Shown here: piece by piece, positions 27,203 through 56,419 of the stretch
Position numbering within the stretch: the first letter of the stretch is position 1
Layout: each line of letters begins with the position of its first letter
Source: a bacterium
GTDB taxonomy: Bacteria > Margulisbacteria > WOR-1 > O2-12-FULL-45-9 > XYB2-FULL-48-7
Assembly (NCBI GenBank): GCA_043812655.1
Contig: JBDRLW010000003.1
Location: 32,001-96,000, forward strand
Length of the DNA stretch: 64,000 nt
Reading direction: 5' to 3'
Program-made: the position numbers and the translations under genes
The notes under the pieces: model-generated
The model's input: the letters and a program-made list of their open reading frames with translations, nothing else
What the model was told of the DNA's origin: nothing
Database searches by the model: none

Positions 27203-27604
27203 TGCCGCGGAGAGGAATTGAACCTCCATGGGTTTAACCCCGCTAGCTCCTGAAGTCCCGCTTCATTAATATTTTATCATAATGACTTGCGGGATCCCGA
27301 CGATTACATTATTATCATATCTTAATGACCGTCGGGACTAGTGCGCCCGCCTTCGGCGGGTAAATCTGCCAGATAATAAACTTGCTTCTTCAAATGCCCA
27401 GGAGAGGAATTGAACCTCCATGGGTTTAACCCCGCTAGCTCCTGAAGCTAGTGCGTCTGCCAGTTCCGCCACCTGGGCATTTGAAGGTGGAAATATTCTC
27501 TCATAAATTGACTGCTGATTCAAGATATTTTTCTGAAAAAAAAGGAGATAGTTCCGCTTTACCCGCCACAGGTGGGTTTACCCGCCGCAGGCGGGCATAG
27601 CGGC
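27203..27604 (-). pseudogene. Fragmented outer tRNA-Leu(CAG) copy enclosing the intact gene
   Basis: tRNA segments 27596-27604, 27551-27557, 27365-27372, 27338-27345 and 27203-27255 in correct order, separated by hairpin inserts. Confidence 0.75.
27395..27478 (-). tRNA. tRNA-Leu(CAG), CCA not encoded
   Basis: GCCCAGG/CCTGGGC acceptor stem, ctagc-ttCAGga-gctag anticodon arm, long variable arm, GGTTCAATTCC. Confidence 0.93.
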
Positions 27605-27610
27605 ATAAAA

Positions 27611-27695
27611 TGCCGCTGGCCGGAGTTGAACCGGCACGGGGGTTAACCCCACTTGATTTTGAGTCAAGCGCGTCTGCCAATTCCACCACAGCGGC
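27611..27695 (-). tRNA. tRNA-Leu(CAA), CCA not encoded
   Basis: GCCGCTG/CAGCGGC acceptor stem, cttga-ctCAAaa-tcaag, GGTTCAACTCC. Confidence 0.93.
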
Positions 27696-27760
27696 ATTTC
27701 GACTCCGTCTCGACTCACTGCGTTCGCTCGACGTCGCTCAATGCCGAGAGAAGCCGAGAC

Positions 27761-27815
27761 ATTCCACTTTACCCGCCTGCCTACCGGCAGGCAAGCCGTA
27801 GGCGGGCACAGCGGC
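27761..27815 (-). pseudogene. Extra 5' fragment of tRNA-Leu(CAA) interrupted by a CCCGCC-GGCGGGTAAA insert
   Basis: Minus strand gccgctgtg [39-nt insert 27768-27806] gtggaat matches the first 16 nt of tRNA-Leu(CAA). Confidence 0.7.
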
Positions 27816-27852
27816 ACGACAACTATGGTGAGTATAGCAAAATAATTAAAGC

Positions 27853-27974: not shown

Positions 27975-28040
27975 AACCTGCGACTAAAAGTCGCGGTTTC
28001 GTTTATCCAAATGGAACCGAGGCTTTCAGCCTCAGGTTCC
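27975..28040. repeat. GAACC-family REP doublet in the rho leader
   Basis: aacctgcgactaaaagtcgcggtttc ... atggaaccgaggctttcagcctcaggttcc. Confidence 0.8.
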
Positions 28041-28066
28041 AAAACAAATCACTCGAGGAGGAAGAA

Positions 28067-29311
28067 ATGGATATTGTAGAGTTAGAAGGTAAGACCCTGC
28101 CCCAATTATACGAGGTCGCCAAAGGTTTGAACATTGCCAACCTGCGGCAATTAAAAAAGCACGACCTGGTTTTTAAGATCCTCGAAGCCCAGACCGAAAA
28201 GAACGGCCACATTTTCACCAAAGGGATCCTAGAGATCCTGCCCGAAAATTATGGTTTCTTGCGGACCGGCGGCTATCTCCCCAGCCGGGAAGACGTTTAT
28301 GTTTCGCAAACCCAGATCCGCCGCTTTGATATGCAAAACGGTGATTTTGTCACCGGCCAGGTCCGGCCGCCTAAAGAGGGCGAAAAATATTATAGTTTGC
28401 TGAAGATCGAAGCGATCAACGGCGAAAATCCGGAAGGGGCGAGACAGCGCATACCATTTGACAGCTTAACACCAATTTTCCCCAACCGCCGCTTTGGTTT
28501 GGAATTTCCCGGTTGCCCCATGGCTTGCCGGTTGATTGACATGGTCGCGCCGATCGGCGCCGGCCAAAGAGCAATGATCGTCTCGCCGCCAAAGGCCGGT
28601 AAAACCACGGTCTTGAAAAATATCGCTAACTCGATCACTGAAAATTTCCCTGAAACCCTGATCAAAGTCTTACTGGTTGATGAACGGCCGGAAGAAGTGA
28701 CCGATATGCAAAGGTCAGTTAAAGGCGAAGTCGTTGCTTCAACTTTTGATGAGCCGCCGGAGGACCACATTAGGATCGCCGAATTATTACTGGAAGCTTG
28801 CAAACGCTTAGTTGAAGCAGGCAAAGATGTCGTAATCCTCCTTGATTCGATCACCCGCTTAGCTCGGGCTTACAATTTAGTTACCCCACCCTCCGGCCGG
28901 ACGCTGTCCGGCGGTCTTGACCCGACTTGTCTCCACCGGCCAAAGCGCTTCTTCGGCGGCGCGCGGAATATTGAAGAAGGCGGCAGTTTAACGATCATCG
29001 CTACTGCTCTAGTTGAAACCGGCTCCAGGATGGACGATATTATTTATGAAGAGTTCAAAGGAACAGGTAATATGGAACTCCACCTCAACCGTAAGCTGGC
29101 TGACCGGAGAATTTTCCCAGCGATCGACGTGCGGCTCTCCGGCACCAGGCGCGAAGAGCTCCTAATGGACGATAAGGAACTGAAAAAGATGTGGCTCTTG
29201 CGCAAAGTGATGGACAATTACGAGGCGGTTGAAGCGACCGAACAATTAATTGAACGGCTCAAAACCTTTAAGACTAATAAGCAGTTCTTTGATTCGGCTG
29301 ATGTAAAGTAA
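28067..29311 (+). CDS. rho: Transcription termination factor Rho
   Basis: [43 protein letters not shown]. Confidence 0.97.
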
Positions 29312-30173
29312 TTTGATTTAACTTTCCAAATTGAAACAATTCAACTTGCGAAGCAGGTTTTTCAGTACCATTTTCATCTTGTATAACAAATAATTGGCTT
29401 TCTGGATATGGCACTTTCCCCCAGGCGAATTGGAGCTTTTGGAAATAGGCAACTCCTTTATTTCTTAACAATTCCTTTTCTCCCCTTGATTTGAACGCAT
29501 TATTATTTAATAACCTATAAATAAAACTATAAGCATAAGCAGAGGCGAAAAATTCGGTCGTAAATTTAGACGTCTGTCTTCCAACTTGTTCGACAATTTT
29601 TAAATACCCAAGCTGACAAATTAATGCTACGGCTAAGTTGATCGCCTCAATTTTTTCAGTATTTTTAAAACTGCTGCGCAACAAGATAGCTTTGGTTGGT
29701 TTTCTCCTTTCACGGGAAGGATCAATCGCCCCATTCTTTTCCAGGCAATATTTAATGTTCTGTATTACCGTTCCGGAAATTGGCAGAAACCCTTGACGAT
29801 TCTCCATTGCTTCCCCCAAATAGGTTGAAAAACCAACGTAGCGGCAATAGGATTTCAAATCCATCCGATAAAACACTTCCGCCTTTTCAACAATATCTAA
29901 TATTTCTTTGGGCAAATTCCCTGCGCGTAAAATCAGGACGGTATCACCAATACTCTGTTCAGCAGGCCGCATAGCTTGCCTTAATTCAGAAAAACTCAAG
30001 CCGTGTTTCCTTTGCGCTGGGGAAAGCCTAACTATCCGAAAATCCAGTGTCCTTTCCACTAATGAAATGTCTCTTCCTTGCCCGGGCAGTCTCTCAATTT
30101 GAATTTGCGATGCTTGAACAGCCCCGTTTTTCCCCCAACGTATTCTACCTTTGCCGCTTATTCTTGTATTCAT
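29274..30173 (-). CDS. Hypothetical protein, AT-rich orphan, probably co-transcribed with the PtsI-like gene
   Basis: 299-aa ORF starting 1 nt after the upstream stop; no recognisable motif. Confidence 0.55.
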   Translation of the reverse strand: MNTRISGKGRIRWGKNGAVQASQIQIERLPGQGRDISLVERTLDFRIVRLSPAQRKHGLSFSELRQAMRPAEQSIGDTVLILRAGNLPKEILDIVEKAEVFYRMDLKSYCRYVGFSTYLGEAMENRQGFLPISGTVIQNIKYCLEKNGAIDPSRERRKPTKAILLRSSFKNTEKIEAINLAVALICQLGYLKIVEQVGRQTSKFTTEFFASAYAYSFIYRLLNNNAFKSRGEKELLRNKGVAYFQKLQFAWGKVPYPESQLFVIQDENGTEKPASQVELFQFGKLNQITLHQPNQRTAY

Positions 30174-30174
30174 A

Positions 30175-32484
30175 TTATTTTATTCCCTCGATCATGCTAA
30201 TGCTTTTGGCTTTTTTCCTTACGTTTAAATAACTCACCGGCCTTGGTGACTTAACTAATTCTCCAATAACGGTCCTGGTATCATAATGCTTGCTTTTTTG
30301 AGCTAAGCGAACTAATAACTTTCTAACTTCCATCGCATTTTTTTGATCCAATAAAGCTTCAATTAATGGCTTTTTTAATTTCCGCTCAAATTTTTTCCAT
30401 TCCCCATAATGAAAATATGATAACAAATACTTTATCTGGTTTTGCCAGGCAGGATTCATGCTCAACGAATCTATCCCCATTAAAGTTAATACTAACGCTC
30501 CTAATGGGTCTCTAGCCATTTCCCCGCAAAAACCAATTCTACCTTTATGCCTTTCTTGATATAACTTTGTTAATAACCCATGAGCTGCTAATTTTTCTTT
30601 TTCCGAAACTTTACTAGCCGATAAAAAGGCCGTAAAATCAGCTTCAGGCTCTTTCATGATTATATAAGCATCTCTAGTTACCTTTAACAAATATCCATGT
30701 TTCTGCAGCTCATTTTTCAGCGGTTCAGACCAGCTGGCAATTTCTTCCACCTTTATGGAACCCTTAACGCCTTTAATCGCCTCAAATATATACCCTAATA
30801 CTTTTGGTGACAGCCAATCATATTCCATTCCGGTCATTAGTTTTGCTCGATCATCAATCTCTAATACCGCGGCAGTTAGATCATTGCCCCCAATAGAAAA
30901 CACCTGGCATTTTTGGGCGATCGCTTCAATATTTTCTACTGCTTCTGGCGTCTCAACCATAGCGCCAAGCTGAATGAATTGGCTGACACGTCGCTGATCA
31001 ATAGTGTAATCGGTAATTAAATCAGTCTCATATTTTTTTACTAAATGTGCGACTTGCTCAACCTGTTCAGGGGTCCGGATCATTGGGATAATAACAGAAA
31101 CCTTTTTCCCTGCTAAACCATCTTCATCTGGATAATATTTCAGACGATCACAAGCAATCAATAGATCCCTGATCTGATCCCTTAAAATGGCTTTCCCTTT
31201 GTCAACTTGTAGCAAAAAATCAACCCCTCTTTTCCCTTGCGTAAAATCATCAAAAGTGCTTTCCGCTTTTGGATACTTATCCTTATCCACGTCAAAAAAG
31301 CGAAAAACAATATCTGTCGTTGCTTCAATAGCATTAATAAATTGTCTTATTAAAGACGGATTTGTTGGTCTCCCCAGCGTATAATGATCTTCCGTGCGAT
31401 AAAGACCAACTTCTTGAGTCTGCGCCCCCTCACTCCCCATATTTTCCATGATCTTTGGCAACGGTAAACGTTGATCATCTCCAGATAACCCTGTCCAGTG
31501 TGTGTCTGCATACTTCTTTGCTTGAGCCATCGCATCACCGATCTCTTTATTCATTAAACTAATATTGCGATCATCAACATTCACCACAACTTGTCCTGTA
31601 TGGGGGTTCATTATTACTTTTACTTCCGGATCTATGTGCGCAAATACTTTTTTGGCTTCTGACATCAAAACTACAGGAATCCCGCGATTAAATGCCAATA
31701 AATATGGATGGCTTGCCAAACCCATAAATTGATGGTCAAAAATAAAGCCTCTCGCCCCAAGATGAACATGAGATTGAATCTCTCCCCAAGCAAGATAATC
31801 AGCTACTAAATAATAACCTGTTTGCTGTATGGGACAATTAACGCCATCAATATGCGCCAATAATCGGGGCAAATACAACTCTGCGTCCTTGTATTGCTCC
31901 TGTTGCCGCATGTGTATTGGGACTTGGCTATTAAATATAATCCTTAACTCTTTTAACTTCCTATATATTGAAGCTCGATCATTAGGTTCTACCAGTTTTT
32001 TTTCTTGTAACAATCTTGATTTATCCACAACATCTCTTTCTGTCTTATTAAACAAATCAACTGAAACCTGAAGAAAAGCCTTAAAAGAAGCAACAAATTG
32101 CGGCCATACCGTTTCAAATGCTTGATGGGCAGAAATATTCTGCTGTTCAATCATCATTTTAGATTGTGTAGCCGCTTCTTTAATCACATAACCAAAGGCC
32201 TCATCTTTTTTATATGCTTCAACCAATGAATCTATTTTTTTAAGTTCATCCTCTTTTTTAATCGGCAGTAATTGATTATTCGTACCGCAAACAACCTGAT
32301 CGATCAATAGACAACTGGGTAAAACATAAGCTGGGTTTTTATCTAGAGGTATTTGTTTCTCTGGTGGAGGCAAAACTCCATTCCCTCGACCAGTAAAAGT
32401 CAAATTTTTTGTAAGTGGCCGGCGCTTTGAAAATGAATGGTTTTCTTTTCGTACTACTCCGTTTATTATCTTACTAAGGGTCAT
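30175..32484 (-). CDS. Divergent PEP-utilising enzyme (PTS enzyme I-like) with N-terminal extension
   Basis: GLASHPYLLAFNRGIPVV (phospho-His region), VGLYRTE, IIPMI, GAMVETP, SIGGNDLT, FCGEMARDP; AGGAG before MTLSK. Confidence 0.75.
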   Translation of the reverse strand: MTLSKIINGVVRKENHSFSKRRPLTKNLTFTGRGNGVLPPPEKQIPLDKNPAYVLPSCLLIDQVVCGTNNQLLPIKKEDELKKIDSLVEAYKKDEAFGYVIKEAATQSKMMIEQQNISAHQAFETVWPQFVASFKAFLQVSVDLFNKTERDVVDKSRLLQEKKLVEPNDRASIYRKLKELRIIFNSQVPIHMRQQEQYKDAELYLPRLLAHIDGVNCPIQQTGYYLVADYLAWGEIQSHVHLGARGFIFDHQFMGLASHPYLLAFNRGIPVVLMSEAKKVFAHIDPEVKVIMNPHTGQVVVNVDDRNISLMNKEIGDAMAQAKKYADTHWTGLSGDDQRLPLPKIMENMGSEGAQTQEVGLYRTEDHYTLGRPTNPSLIRQFINAIEATTDIVFRFFDVDKDKYPKAESTFDDFTQGKRGVDFLLQVDKGKAILRDQIRDLLIACDRLKYYPDEDGLAGKKVSVIIPMIRTPEQVEQVAHLVKKYETDLITDYTIDQRRVSQFIQLGAMVETPEAVENIEAIAQKCQVFSIGGNDLTAAVLEIDDRAKLMTGMEYDWLSPKVLGYIFEAIKGVKGSIKVEEIASWSEPLKNELQKHGYLLKVTRDAYIIMKEPEADFTAFLSASKVSEKEKLAAHGLLTKLYQERHKGRIGFCGEMARDPLGALVLTLMGIDSLSMNPAWQNQIKYLLSYFHYGEWKKFERKLKKPLIEALLDQKNAMEVRKLLVRLAQKSKHYDTRTVIGELVKSPRPVSYLNVRKKAKSISMIEGIK

Positions 32485-32524
32485 ATTAATACTCCTGATC
32501 ATTAAATAGCATTCAACCACATAT

Positions 32525-32588: not shown

Positions 32589-33830
32589 ATGTTTGGAATA
32601 AATGAAGTCGAGAGAGAAATAGGGTCAAGGGTCCAGGGTCCAAGGTCCAGAAGAATTAGCAGCATCTCCATCGATTCCCGCACTGTCCAACCCGGTGAAC
32701 TATTTATCCCGATCAAAGGGGAGAAATTTGATGGGAATAAGTTTATTAAAGACGCTCTAGCCAAAGGGGCTTTTGTCGTCGAAACAAAAGACGGGCTAAC
32801 CGCCCTGCACCAGCTCGCCGCTTACCACCGCAGTAAATTTGATCTTCCGGTCATCGCCATCACCGGCAGTGTGGGGAAAACGACGACCAAAGACATGCTT
32901 GCCTCGATCCTCTCCCAAGCGATGCCAACCTTAAAGAACGAACAGAACTATAATAATGAAATAGGCGTCCCCCTCACCCTCCTTAAGCTGACCAAAAAGC
33001 ATAAAGCCGCGGTAATTGAGATGGGCATGCAGGGAAAGGGAGAAATTGAGCTTTTGGCCAAGATCGCCAGGCCAACTATCGCCATTGTTACCAATATCGG
33101 CGAAGCCCACCTTGAACAACTGGGGACTAAAGCTAATATTGCCAAAGCTAAAGCCGAAGTCTTTAAATTCCTAAAAAAAGAAGATTGGGTGGTGATCAAC
33201 GCGGATGATGAATACTACGAACATTTAGTAGCCAGGGTCCAGGGTCCAGGGGCCAGGGTAAAAACCTTTGGTATTATTGAGAAGGCTGACATTAGAACAA
33301 AAGAATTGACGGGGATCAATCTGCCGCTGCCCGGCGAACACAACATTTATAACGCCCTGGCGGCGATCGCGGTGGCGAAAATCTTAAAAATTAAAAAGCC
33401 AGCCATTAAAAAAGGGCTGGAAACTTTTAAGCCTTCCAGCAAGCGGATGGAAGTGATCAACCGGCCAGACGGGACAAAGATCATTAACGATACCTATAAC
33501 GCTAATCCCCAATCAATGGCGGCAACCCTAAAAGTCTTAGCCGGTATTGAGCGGCCAAATGTAAAAAGGATCGCAGTCTTGGGAAGTATGCTGGAACTTG
33601 GCAAACGCTCCAAAGCCGCTCATGCCAAGATAATTAAACTGGCCAAACAATTAAAGATCGACAAAGTCTTAACTTTTGGCGAATTCTGGCCAAGCCTGGC
33701 TCCAGCGGAAAAAACCAAAAAGAACTTAATAAAAAAATTACGGCAATTAATAGCGCCTCGTGATATAATTTTAATCAAGGGCTCCCGGGGAATGAGGATG
33801 GAAGACGTGGTCGACGCGATCAGAACTTAA
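32589..33830 (+). CDS. murF: UDP-N-acetylmuramoyl-tripeptide--D-Ala-D-Ala ligase
   Basis: IDSRTV, AITGSVGKTTTK, NNEIGVPLTL, NDTYNANP, KGSRGM. Confidence 0.93.
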   Translation: MFGINEVEREIGSRVQGPRSRRISSISIDSRTVQPGELFIPIKGEKFDGNKFIKDALAKGAFVVETKDGLTALHQLAAYHRSKFDLPVIAITGSVGKTTTKDMLASILSQAMPTLKNEQNYNNEIGVPLTLLKLTKKHKAAVIEMGMQGKGEIELLAKIARPTIAIVTNIGEAHLEQLGTKANIAKAKAEVFKFLKKEDWVVINADDEYYEHLVARVQGPGARVKTFGIIEKADIRTKELTGINLPLPGEHNIYNALAAIAVAKILKIKKPAIKKGLETFKPSSKRMEVINRPDGTKIINDTYNANPQSMAATLKVLAGIERPNVKRIAVLGSMLELGKRSKAAHAKIIKLAKQLKIDKVLTFGEFWPSLAPAEKTKKNLIKKLRQLIAPRDIILIKGSRGMRMEDVVDAIRT

Positions 33831-33833
33831 CGT

Positions 33834-34137
33834 GCCGCGGTGGCCCGCCTACGGCTTGCCTGCCGGTAGGCAGGCGGGTAAATGGAACTGGCTGGCACTT
33901 ACATCCCGAAGTTGAATGCAATTTTTTGCCGAGGTGGTGGAACTGGCAGACACACCAGCTTGAGGGGCTGGCGCCGTTAAAAGCGTAGGAGTTCAAATCT
34001 CCTCCTCGGCATAAAAATTGCTTTCAAATTCAGAGATGGAGGTTCTCCCGACGGACATTATAATAGAATAATGATGAAATCGTCGGGATCCCGATTTCCG
34101 CCAAAGGCGGAACATCGGGAAAGTCCTCTCCGCGGCA
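33834..34137 (+). pseudogene. Outer tRNA-Leu shell (5' and 3' ends) interrupted by hairpins and enclosing tRNA-Leu(GAG)
   Basis: gccgcggtgg[insert]tggaactggc ... ggaggttc[two hairpins]aagtcctctccgcggca; perfect GCCGCGG/CCGCGGC acceptor stem. Confidence 0.75.
33928..34011 (+). tRNA. tRNA-Leu(GAG), CCA not encoded
   Basis: GCCGAGG/CCTCGGC acceptor stem, ccagc-ttGAGgg-gctgg, GTTCAAATC. Confidence 0.93.
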
Positions 34138-34140
34138 TTA

Positions 34141-34788
34141 TTAATTTGCCTTTTTTCTTAATCCCGAAACTGTTGTAAAACTATACCCCTTTTTCTTTAG
34201 ATCTTTGATCATTATTGGCAGGGCCTCGACTATTTGCCGGCTATTATCATGCATCAACACTACCGAGCCATTCCGCACCAGGGAAGTAACCCTTTTGGCG
34301 ATCGAAGCCGCCGTTCGCATCCCCTTTTTTGGCTGGTAGAAATCGTCAGCGTTCGCGTTCCATAACACGATCTCATAGCCCGCTTTTTCGATCAGCTTTC
34401 TTTTAGAATATGGTAATCGCCCGTGCGGCGGGCGGAAAAGAACAACCTTTTTATTAGTAGCCTTCATGATCAAAAGGGAAGTCTCTCTAATCTCTGCCAG
34501 CGTTTTCTTATCATCCATCTGGTCCAAGGACGTATGGCTGTAGGTGTGGTTCCCGATCTCGTGCCCGTCCGCGCTTGCCTGGCTGACAAACTGCGGATTA
34601 TCCTTAACTTTCCAGCCGATCACAAAAAAGGTCACCGGGACATTTTCCTTTTTCAGTATAGGCAAGAGCTTATCGATGACGCCAGGCGTTGGCCCATCGT
34701 CAAAAGTTAAAGCAACCTGCTTTTTCGCGCTCGCGGAAAAAGCTAAACATAATGCCAAGATCAAGATAATGGATATTTTTCTTACCAT
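34141..34788 (-). CDS. Polysaccharide deacetylase (NodB/CE4), exported
   Basis: Signal peptide, LTFDDGP, GNHTYSH, FRPPHG, VLMHD. Confidence 0.92.
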   Translation of the reverse strand: MVRKISIILILALCLAFSASAKKQVALTFDDGPTPGVIDKLLPILKKENVPVTFFVIGWKVKDNPQFVSQASADGHEIGNHTYSHTSLDQMDDKKTLAEIRETSLLIMKATNKKVVLFRPPHGRLPYSKRKLIEKAGYEIVLWNANADDFYQPKKGMRTAASIAKRVTSLVRNGSVVLMHDNSRQIVEALPIMIKDLKKKGYSFTTVSGLRKKAN

Positions 34789-52606: not shown

Positions 52607-52975
52607 GCGCGCTTAGTCCCGACGATTCGACTTGCGTCGAATGTCGGGATCCCGATTTCCGCTGTAAGCGGAACATCGGGACTCAGCTGGTTAGAGTACT
52701 TGTCCCGATGGTCATTAGAATAGATAGTAATGGAATCATCGGGATCCCGAGGCTGAAGCTACCATTATTGCGCGCGCGCTTAGCTCAGCTGGTTAGAGTA
52801 CTTGCTTGACAGGCAAGGGGTCACAGGTTCGAAACCTGTAGCGCGCAATAATGGATTAGTTTACTCGGGACTTGACAGGTGCCTTGACTTAGCTCGGCAC
52901 AGGCAAGGGGTCACAGGTTCGCCTGCCCCGAGCGAGGAACGAAGTGACGAGTCGAGGGGAAACCTGTAGCGCGCA
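52607..52975 (+). pseudogene. Outer tRNA-Val(GAC) split into five segments by four inserts, one carrying the intact gene
   Basis: Segments 52607-16, 52682-702, 52871-79, 52904-21 and 52960-75 concatenate to a sequence identical to 52774-52847. Confidence 0.9.
52774..52847 (+). tRNA. tRNA-Val(GAC), CCA not encoded
   Basis: GCGCGCT/AGCGCGC, cttgc-ttGACag-gcaag, GGTTCGAAACC. Confidence 0.94.
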
Positions 52976-55909: not shown

Positions 55910-56419
55910 ACCTGAGAATGAATTCTCGGTTCCATTTAACGGATGCAAAAATAAATTTTCGCATCCTAGGAAACGATAAAAATGCTCTATCATTATAATT
56001 TCAGGACTTATTTAAGGAAACCGACCTTGGAAGATAAGGAAATAAGGTTATTTCTAAAAGAAATTTTCCTTGAAATATCCAAAGAAAAAGGTTTTGATAT
56101 TATCGAATGCGAAATACTATCGGAACATGTCCATATTTTAATTGAACACAGCTATACCTTAAGCACTTCGCAAGTCATGAAATTTTTGAAAGGTATTTCC
56201 GCAAGGAGACTTTTCCAGCAATATCCTACTAATAGGTTTGAACACAAAAAACTTTGGGGAAGATCATTTTTCGCCAAAAAGATCACTAATGAAGAAAAAG
56301 ATAATGTTATTGATTATATTAGGAACCAAAGAAATGAAGAAGGTATTGATAAAAGATTCTAAGGGTGCGAGAATTTATTCTCGCGGGCCCCTGAATAACC
56401 GCGAATTCATTCGCAGGTT
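55908..56419 (+). mobile_element. IS200/IS605-type (Y1 HUH) element without tnpB, bounded by hairpins, between pyrK and pyrD
   Basis: tnpA flanked by inner hairpins (55941-55966, 56362-56390) and outer inverted GAACC REPs (55908-55935, 56397-56419). Confidence 0.8.
55982..56362 (+). CDS. tnpA: IS200-like Y1 transposase
   Basis: EHVHIL (HUH), KGISAR, LWGRSFF, YIRNQ catalytic Tyr. Confidence 0.9.
   Translation: MLYHYNFRTYLRKPTLEDKEIRLFLKEIFLEISKEKGFDIIECEILSEHVHILIEHSYTLSTSQVMKFLKGISARRLFQQYPTNRFEHKKLWGRSFFAKKITNEEKDNVIDYIRNQRNEEGIDKRF

Follow-up and report, generated by a model that had tools for sequence, protein, structure and literature searches.

tRNA genes are usually taken as stable, vertically inherited landmarks. 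How did an intact tRNA-Leu(GAG) gene come to lie inside the remains of a second, different tRNA-Leu gene? This question is raised by a locus between a murF-type gene and a polysaccharide deacetylase gene in the window (the whole 64,000-nt stretch of DNA analysed here), which comes from a bacterial genome of 1.62 Mb in 46 contigs (93% complete, 45 tRNA genes; G000). We resolved the parts of this nest, compared them with tRNA genes and hairpin repeats of the same genome and of its relatives, and weighed the histories that could have produced it.

One tRNA-Leu gene inside the shell of another

Direct reading of positions 33600-34400 resolved the 304 nt at 33834-34137 into a tRNA-Leu shell, hairpin modules and an intact tRNA-Leu(GAG) inside (Table 1). 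The shell begins 3 nt downstream of the murF stop codon (TAA, 33828-33830), and its outer acceptor halves GCCGCGG/CCGCGGC are paired at 7/7 positions, which confirms the perfect 7-bp acceptor stem reported in an earlier, sequence-only reading of this DNA. That reading had also described the anticodon and variable arms of the shell as missing; this held, except that beyond the D-arm piece TGGAACTGGC (33883-33892) a further 11 shell bases, TGGCACTTACA (33893-33903), extend into the anticodon stem. The piece 33883-33903 was set by eye against GGAACTGGCAGACGCACTAGC of relatives' tRNA-Leu(CAG), and the 5' piece before the first hairpin matches the GCCGCGG-type tRNA-Leu of relatives. On the other side of the cargo, the shell piece GGAGGTTC has its last base at 34045, and 34037-34045 joined by coordinates to 34121-34137 gives the 3' end of relatives' tRNA-Leu(CAG). 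Both T-loop hairpins of the shell sit between C56 and A57, and the second is near-identical to a unit in a Val nest of the window (52650-52681).

Table 1. Parts of the nest and its two neighbouring genes, in window coordinates
Feature	Position	Strand	Basis
murF-type Mur ligase gene	32589..33830	+	ORF; Pfam Mur_ligase_M, _C, catalytic domain
Shell 5' acceptor strand GCCGCGG and positions 8-10, GCCGCGGTGG	33834..33843	+	Pairs 7/7 with 34130-34136
39-nt hairpin CCCGCC..GGCGGGTAAA within shell D arm	33844..33882	+	Direct reading
Shell D-arm remainder and anticodon-stem start, TGGAACTGGCTGGCACTTACA, partly decayed	33883..33903	+	Direct reading
Cargo left arm TCCCGAAGTTGAATGCAATTTTTT (TCCCGA.., then GCAATTTTT, prolonging the inner acceptor stem)	33904..33927	+	Reading, complementarity, fold
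Intact inner tRNA-Leu(GAG)	33928..34011	+	ARAGORN; Rfam RF00005
Cargo right arm TAAAAATTGCTTTCAAATTCAGAGA (AAAAATTGC.. to TTCAGAGA, decayed ..TTCGGGA end)	34012..34036	+	Reading, complementarity, fold
Shell variable-region end, T-stem 5' strand, T-loop TTC, TGGAGGTTC	34037..34045	+	Direct reading
T-loop hairpin unit 1, TCCCGACG..CGTCGGGA (TCCCG..CGGGA)	34046..34088	+	Direct reading
T-loop hairpin unit 2, TCCCGATTTCCGCC..GGCGGAACATCGGGA (TCCCG..CGGGA)	34089..34120	+	Direct reading
Shell T-loop AAG, T-stem 3' strand, 3' acceptor strand, discriminator A, AAGTCCTCTCCGCGGCA	34121..34137	+	Direct reading
Polysaccharide deacetylase gene, downstream neighbour	34141..34788	-	Pfam Polysacc_deac_1, E 1.1e-36

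Folded as one DNA strand, the 304 nt gave a single nested structure closed by the outer acceptor stem, in which the cargo arms are predicted to continue straight into the inner acceptor stem. The fold energy was -82.5 kcal/mol, against -45.3 +/- 4.2 kcal/mol in shuffled sequences (z = -8.9; 0/100 shuffles as low). Given this fold and shell ends that lie within 1-3/47 mismatches of real tRNA-Leu genes, the nest is not a chance arrangement. It holds no enzyme gene, its 304 nt being filled by tRNA, arms, hairpins and shell; no ORF of at least 80 aa was found between murF and the deacetylase gene, and a scan of 33600-34300 detected no promoter-like or terminator-like sites.

We compared the 20 surviving 5' bases and the 27 surviving 3' bases of the shell with every distinct tRNA-Leu in the relatives' loci. 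The ten best matches differed from the shell at those 1-3 of 47 positions, and all combined a GCCGCGG acceptor with a Leu(CAG) body (nine Leu(CAG) genes and one Leu(GAG) of G026 with a Leu(CAG) body). The inner gene differed from the shell at 9/47 positions, 8 of them among the 27 of the 3' end. Leu(GAG/AAG) genes of another kind, which share the GCCGCGG acceptor and occur in G015 and G036, differed at 6/47; we dropped this type-B Leu(GAG), as in G015, as an identity for the shell, since the 27-nt 3' piece had 6 mismatches to it and 0-2 to Leu(CAG). With the hairpins removed, the 3' 25-mer of the shell was found with at most two mismatches in 14/31 genomes of the order (the genome studied included) and exactly in six relatives, and the ARAGORN genes at these matches were tRNA-Leu(CAG) 3' ends, G026 excepted. 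These matches indicate that the shell represents a genuine tRNA-Leu gene whose type differs from that of its cargo, as the sequence-only reading had proposed. The proposed kinship with the shell near 27203 was borne out as well: across the whole genome, CCTCTCCGCGGCA occurs in tRNA-like context in these two shells only, and their 3' ends differ by one base. A search of the genome for an intact GCCGCGG-stem tRNA-Leu found none.

Because the Leu(GAG) of G026 has a shell-like, CAG-type body, the shell may once have decoded the same codons as its cargo. The further suggestion that such cassettes could swap tRNA alleles and isoacceptors fared unevenly. Replacement of tRNA alleles is supported by the sequences of hetero-allelic nests in G030, G026 and G015, whereas a swap of isoacceptors is plausible and is not established, since the anticodon of the shell is gone.

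The inner tRNA-Leu(GAG) was called at 33927-34012 by ARAGORN and at 33928-34011 by Rfam (50.1 bits), and it is the sole GAG isoacceptor gene found among the genome's 45 tRNA genes. Its surroundings agree with the earlier description of an imperfect inverted repeat resembling a decayed TCCCG..CGGGA unit: the cargo arms are imperfectly complementary, and 9 contiguous pairs adjoin the tRNA, the top value among the 45 tRNAs. Across the genome the longest complementary run in tRNA flanks averaged 3.9, compared with 3.4 in shuffles, and it reached at least 6 bp at 6/45 tRNAs, four of which are nested cargo genes; flank complementarity that extends the acceptor stem is no general trait of the genome's tRNAs. 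In a by-eye comparison of seven cargo units, the arms were complementary over 6-10 bp and unrelated in sequence, which suggests that structure rather than sequence is kept. The ends of the cassettes are not uniform, as the Leu(CAG) cargo at 27394-27479 is without TCCCG/CGGGA bounds. The inner allele differed at 1-2/84 bases from the alleles of five genomes of another family (f2) and of G008, and at 11 bases from that of the relative with the closest MurF; in genes as short as tRNAs, and among related genomes that are not independent, this may be read as a weak sign of horizontal origin.

Shells, hairpins and tRNA cargo in this genome and its relatives

A self-fragment search combined with reading of the loci placed shell pieces at about 11 of the 45 tRNAs, namely Ser(TGA), Leu(CAG), Leu(CAA), Leu(GAG), Val(GAC), one Met, Arg(CCG), Pro(GGG), Pro(CGG), Tyr and Glu(TTC). 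The Met and Val nests have an almost complete shell, with the working copy in the loop of the second of two tandem TCCCG..CGGGA units; some other shells of the genome are mere fragments. Such shells escape tRNA finders and inflate apparent intergenic DNA in annotation.

The hairpins proved to be specific in their positions. The 39-nt hairpin has exactly two copies in the genome (33844-33882, and 27768-27806 on the minus strand), both at the D-arm start of a Leu shell. Among 21 tandem TCCCG pairs (nine from this genome and 12 from relatives, the latter chosen by junction motif and not by position), all 21 lay within tRNA-like sequence: 13/21 exactly at C56/R57 of the T loop (GTTC/RA), 5/21 at AG/CT of D or anticodon loops, and 3/21 elsewhere inside shells. 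The junction of the tandem units, CRTCGGGATCCCGAYG, was present in 7/146 genomes of the phylum, all seven from the taxonomic order to which this genome belongs, and a reversed-pattern control gave 0; 12 of its 13 loci were in tRNA-like sequence and one was a chance match in a coding region. Single TCCCG regex matches outside tRNAs resembled chance. The flanks of the hairpins rejoin into uninterrupted tRNA sequence with 0 duplicated bases, and no target-site duplication was visible at the nest. TCCCG hairpin units were also found without cargo.

Related designs occurred in other genomes. At the murF locus of G030, a GCCTGGG-type 5' shell is followed by TCCCGATTTGAAG.. and then by a GCCGAGG-type tRNA, and the same locus of G008 has a cargo-type TCCCGA arm like that of G030; a TCCCGA arm followed by a GCCGAGG Leu(GAG) gene was found in 3/65 genomes of the class. 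G026 shows the architecture of the present nest: the D arm of its shell contains a CCCGCC hairpin and the anticodon loop a Leu(GAG) bounded by TCCCG, while the two shell halves are mutually mismatched. At 780-1030 of its locus L037 (G026:C20), Leu(GAG) has a Leu(CAG) body and an encoded CCA, and the shell halves GCCCAGG/CCGCGGC are unpaired; an anticodon change within a CAG-type gene is possible there. In G015 (L137, G015:C16, 1380-1650), a Lys(CTT) with acceptor GCACCAT lies in the T loop of a complete GGCGCCA Lys(CTT) shell.

Two further nests of the window are more elaborate. The one at 27203-27816 on the minus strand is a multi-layer Leu nest. Its layers are, in order, a Leu(CAA) 5' piece carrying the 39-nt hairpin, an intact Leu(CAA), the 5' piece GCCGCTATG with two CCCGCC hairpins, an intact Leu(CAG) whose acceptor is GCCCAGG, and the remainder of a GCCGCGG-type Leu(CAG), into which three hairpins are inserted. 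Leu(CAG) is on the same strand as murF in four relatives' loci (L008, L014, L021, L026) and on the opposite strand here. In the Val(GAC) nest at 52607-52975, the D loop of the shell holds two TCCCG units, the intact Val(GAC) lies in the second of two anticodon-loop units, and the T loop has an insert of another repeat type (..CGAGCGAGGAACGAAGTGACGAGTCGAGG..).

The site behind murF and possible histories of the nest

MurF homologues were found in 40/40 relatives searched, the closest being 71% identical, among relatives none of which belongs to the same genus. A tRNA-Leu lay directly behind murF in 28/29 loci examined (27 GAG, 1 AAG), and it mostly began 0-20 nt past the murF stop, which corresponds to the start of the shell here and not to that of the inner gene. 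By sequence, 19 of these 28 tRNA-Leu genes were of the inner type, four of a third type and one intermediate; 4/28 were of a GCCGCGG/GCCGCGA type with a GGGAG T arm, and the shell-type T arm was found at the murF site in 0/28. Judged from these distant relatives only, the ancestral gene at the murF site would seem to be of the inner type, since that type prevails there and the shell T arm is absent; this goes halfway towards the outcome that the sequence-only reading had named as refuting, and tells against the idea that a shell-type gene was replaced. Contigs of closer strains point the other way. In groundwater runs with related strains (X2 and X4, two of the runs coming from one study), we found three short, low-depth contigs whose middle letters are unseen. 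One X4 contig (151 nt, depth 2.6) follows 33787-33843, apart from 3 differences, and resumes at 34124, which leaves about 58 unseen bases between the two points, the length for an uninterrupted tRNA of 82 nt. One X2 contig tracks 33739-33843 and continues with 45 bases unlike the hairpin, and another has 39 bases unlike the T-loop hairpins, followed by an exact match to 34124-34166. All three diverge from the window exactly at shell/hairpin borders, a hint that an uninterrupted shell-type gene may occupy the site in related groundwater strains. No contig in four contig runs of public data spanned the whole nest, and a metagenome scan gave 0 matches both for the cargo arm with the inner tRNA and for the shell 3' end with its downstream flank; the public runs containing matches had small shares (0.05-0.08), and none was recorded as RNA.

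From how the nest is built and how its shell differs from its cargo, together with the synteny, the site-specific hairpins and the return of the design at other loci, all of which are observed, we infer an order of events and a mobility of the parts. We hold it probable, with some reserve, that a mobile, structure-bounded cassette brought a replacement tRNA into a resident gene, and that tRNA-specific hairpins then colonised the dead shell. The resident would have been a tRNA-Leu directly behind murF, with a GCCGCGG acceptor stem and a Leu(CAG)-like body. A cassette of about 133 nt (33904-34036), closed by its own stem and carrying a divergent tRNA-Leu(GAG), would have inserted into the anticodon arm of the resident, and about 30 nt of the resident gene, from anticodon loop to variable arm, would have been lost at or after insertion. 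The cargo gene, being the only GAG gene, would have taken over decoding and left the resident copy dead; the inner tRNA would probably be transcribed by read-through from murF and released by ordinary tRNA-processing enzymes. The dead shell would then have acquired or kept hairpin modules in the D arm after position 10 and in the T loop at C56/A57, modules that would be lethal in a sole working copy and so are seen only in shells. The net outcome would be the replacement of one tRNA allele by another.

Under this cassette history, an essential single-copy tRNA gene was apparently overwritten by a hairpin-packaged divergent allele, and the old gene persists as a surrounding fossil. If the cassettes are mobile, this would account for why tRNA alleles are patchily distributed at a locus that is conserved, would show how selfish DNA may invade an essential gene without killing its host, by bringing a spare, and would point to an enzyme activity that recognises tRNA loop positions in DNA. 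Tentatively, and with less confidence than in the history of this one locus, we propose a wider reading in which gene-free, stem-closed DNA modules insert at single-stranded tRNA-gene loops (those of the D, anticodon and T arms, mostly at C56/R57) and into one another's loops, some of them with a whole tRNA gene as passenger. If true, tRNA alleles, and perhaps isoacceptors, would spread horizontally and overwrite residents across bacterial families, and tRNA genes would be contested mobile loci, possibly pressed by tRNA-targeting nucleases.

The foremost alternative, which we consider unlikely, is homing by gene conversion: a tRNA-specific nuclease, for example a small GIY-YIG enzyme, would cut the intact tRNA gene, and in its repair the whole nest, shell arms and cargo together, would be copied from another genome with the conserved tRNA ends as homology arms, so that the shell need not be the former resident. 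The genome has seven PF01541 (GIY-YIG) matches, all on contigs other than the window's and hence none in the window. Six are small genes, each of which (6/6) lies 17-117 nt from a tRNA gene, and two of these (C9, C29) lie in nests with TCCCG units. Mismatched acceptor halves in G026 and in the 27203 shell would fit one-sided co-conversion, and free-standing GIY-YIG homing endonuclease genes in tRNA clusters have a reported precedent in SegB of phage T4 (PMC2330249, PMC13096335). By those accounts tRNA regions are preferentially inherited, duplicated or replaced, which resembles the situation here, as do the small GIY-YIG genes beside tRNAs. However, the nest under study has no nuclease gene, its own acceptor halves match perfectly, and the related strains' contigs suggest an uninterrupted shell-type gene at the same site. 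It also differs from the SegB case in lying on a bacterial chromosome and not in a phage, in that cleavage would be putative, and in its design, a complete tRNA within another, plus hairpins whose loop positions are constant.

The six small GIY-YIG proteins share 30-45% identity with one another, save one pair at 71%. The protein of contig C9, the one searched, matches the UPF0213 structures 1zg2 and 1ywl; NCBIfam gave no family name for these proteins, with two weak, sub-threshold matches to a group I intron endonuclease model. UPF0213-type GIY-YIG nucleases may be candidate enzymes acting in trans, and the link is weak because a GIY-YIG gene lies within about 1.5 kb of only 1/11 of the relatives' hairpin-pair loci and none is in this nest. 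The pair at 71% identity belongs to the loci of both tRNA-Gln genes, CTG and TTG (C13:19685-19987 and C44:56199-56601), each of which is followed by a GIY-YIG gene, and both loci are without TCCCG units. In one relative (L035, G023:C105, 976-1630), Leu(CAA) and Leu(CAG) are separated by a small GIY-YIG gene, and about 100 nt downstream the 3' end of Leu(CAG) is present once more.

We judge it improbable that the inner gene is a repair patch and not cargo, that is, that hairpins broke the resident gene and a foreign tRNA-Leu(GAG) fragment recombined in as a rescue. The resemblance of the inner allele to alleles of another family and the occurrence of hairpin units without cargo would agree with such a rescue, but the tRNA occupies precisely the loop of a TCCCG-type unit, flanked by arms that are complementary for 9 bp, and similar stem-closed packaging with unrelated arm sequences was seen by eye in the seven cargo units; an illegitimate patch is unlikely to repeat one design. 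A local origin, in which the Leu(CAG) locus 6 kb upstream supplied the shell pieces and ectopic conversion or duplication placed them around an inner-type gene already resident, strikes us as distinctly improbable. The one-base difference between the two shell 3' ends, the identical 39-nt hairpin in both regions and the inner type at the site in 19/28 relatives would suit it; it would nevertheless require two separate insertions that jointly form a tRNA with a perfect acceptor stem, and it sits badly with the hint, from related strains' contigs, of a shell-type gene without interruption at the site.

Non-canonical archaeal tRNA introns sit in tRNA loops, and transposition has been proposed for archaeal introns at such non-canonical positions. 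The nest resembles them in having inserts in D, anticodon and T loops, with related inserts at several genes, and in folding over its whole length as one nested structure. Even so, we give almost no credence to a shell that still functions as a tRNA, interrupted several times and freed of its inserts by splicing as introns of the archaeal type or of group I: the shell has neither anticodon loop nor variable arm, other shells amount to no more than fragments, a working copy lies in every case within the shell or next to it, the tRNA-splicing endonuclease family PF01974 was not found in the 93%-complete genome of this bacterium, and at the nest Rfam returned tRNA matches only, with no intron family above threshold. 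An assembly artefact of the metagenome bin is just as hard to believe, for although the genome is a 46-contig assembly, the nest is interior to a 111-kb contig and the same design recurs in separate assemblies, including the one-contig G004 (L135) and the five-contig G012.

Comparison with known mobile and repeat systems

Our search of the openly searchable literature turned up no account of bacterial tRNA-in-tRNA nests or of hairpins inserted specifically into bacterial tRNA genes, and the nest departs from each known system compared in the defining features tested. Integrative elements that target tRNA genes restore the tRNA 3' end. Like them, the nest involves a tRNA gene as target, a working tRNA that is kept and a partial copy left beside it. 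In contrast to them, it has no integrase, its insert is 133 nt long, and it carries a complete tRNA instead of a 3' part. Remnants of the old gene lie to either side of the new one and are unlike it in sequence. No direct repeat of the tRNA 3' end was found, as the shell and inner 3' ends differ at 8/27 positions.

REP/BIME repeats with their RAYT (Y1) transposases and MITEs share with the TCCCG units the form of short palindromic modules, often in tandem pairs, which are numerous and encode no gene themselves. The TCCCG units differ from them in lying almost only in tRNA loops and in that one unit type carries a whole tRNA; compared with MITEs, inverted ends are present in the TCCCG units, while target-site duplication is absent, with no duplicated base at the rejoined flanks. 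We rejected a RAYT as the enzyme for the TCCCG units. All three Y1_Tnp genes of the genome have GGAACC..GGTTCC hairpins within 450 nt, and no TCCCG..CGGGA or CCCGCC..GGCGGG unit was found within that distance of any of them; the GGAACC..GGTTCC hairpins together with Y1 are a separate REP-like system in the same genome. In the window, a Y1 transposase (RAYT-like) gene at 55979-56329 (plus strand) is flanked by hairpins of the GGAACC..GGTTCC type, and another such hairpin is found at 27975-28045, between the Leu nest and rho.

The Ssn single-stranded DNA nucleases with their NTS/SRM hairpin repeats (Chenal et al. 2025, PMC11893778) are alike in linking short GC-stemmed hairpins to small single-domain GIY-YIG nucleases, and the NTS core TTCCCGCG..CGCGGGAA given there resembles TCCCG..CGGGA. 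tRNA does not appear in that paper. The copies here number in the tens, not hundreds, and lie inside tRNA shells, and the C9 GIY-YIG protein matches the UPF0213 structures named above. The degenerate SRM pattern had four matches genome-wide, against 3-7 in five shuffles, and 0 in nine nest regions; at this shuffle level, with none in the nests, we rejected the identity of the hairpins with SRM repeats.

The surroundings of the nest held some further features. Two ORFs lie at 29274-32520 on the minus strand, between rho (28067-29311) and murF, one of them with a PEP-utilising enzyme domain. In a scan of genome contigs, the Rho protein (28067-29308) gave distant matches only (55-63% identity). 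Rho was directly followed by murF in 4/9 of the relatives' loci checked (L014, L017, L018, L021). A third repeat family, rich in GAGCGAAGCGAGTCGAG-like motifs, directly adjoins tRNA genes or shell pieces at 27700-27760 of the window; such repeats also occur at C30:106790-106900 and C44:56420-56530 of the same genome, and upstream of Leu(GAG) in three relatives' loci (L003, L025, L026).
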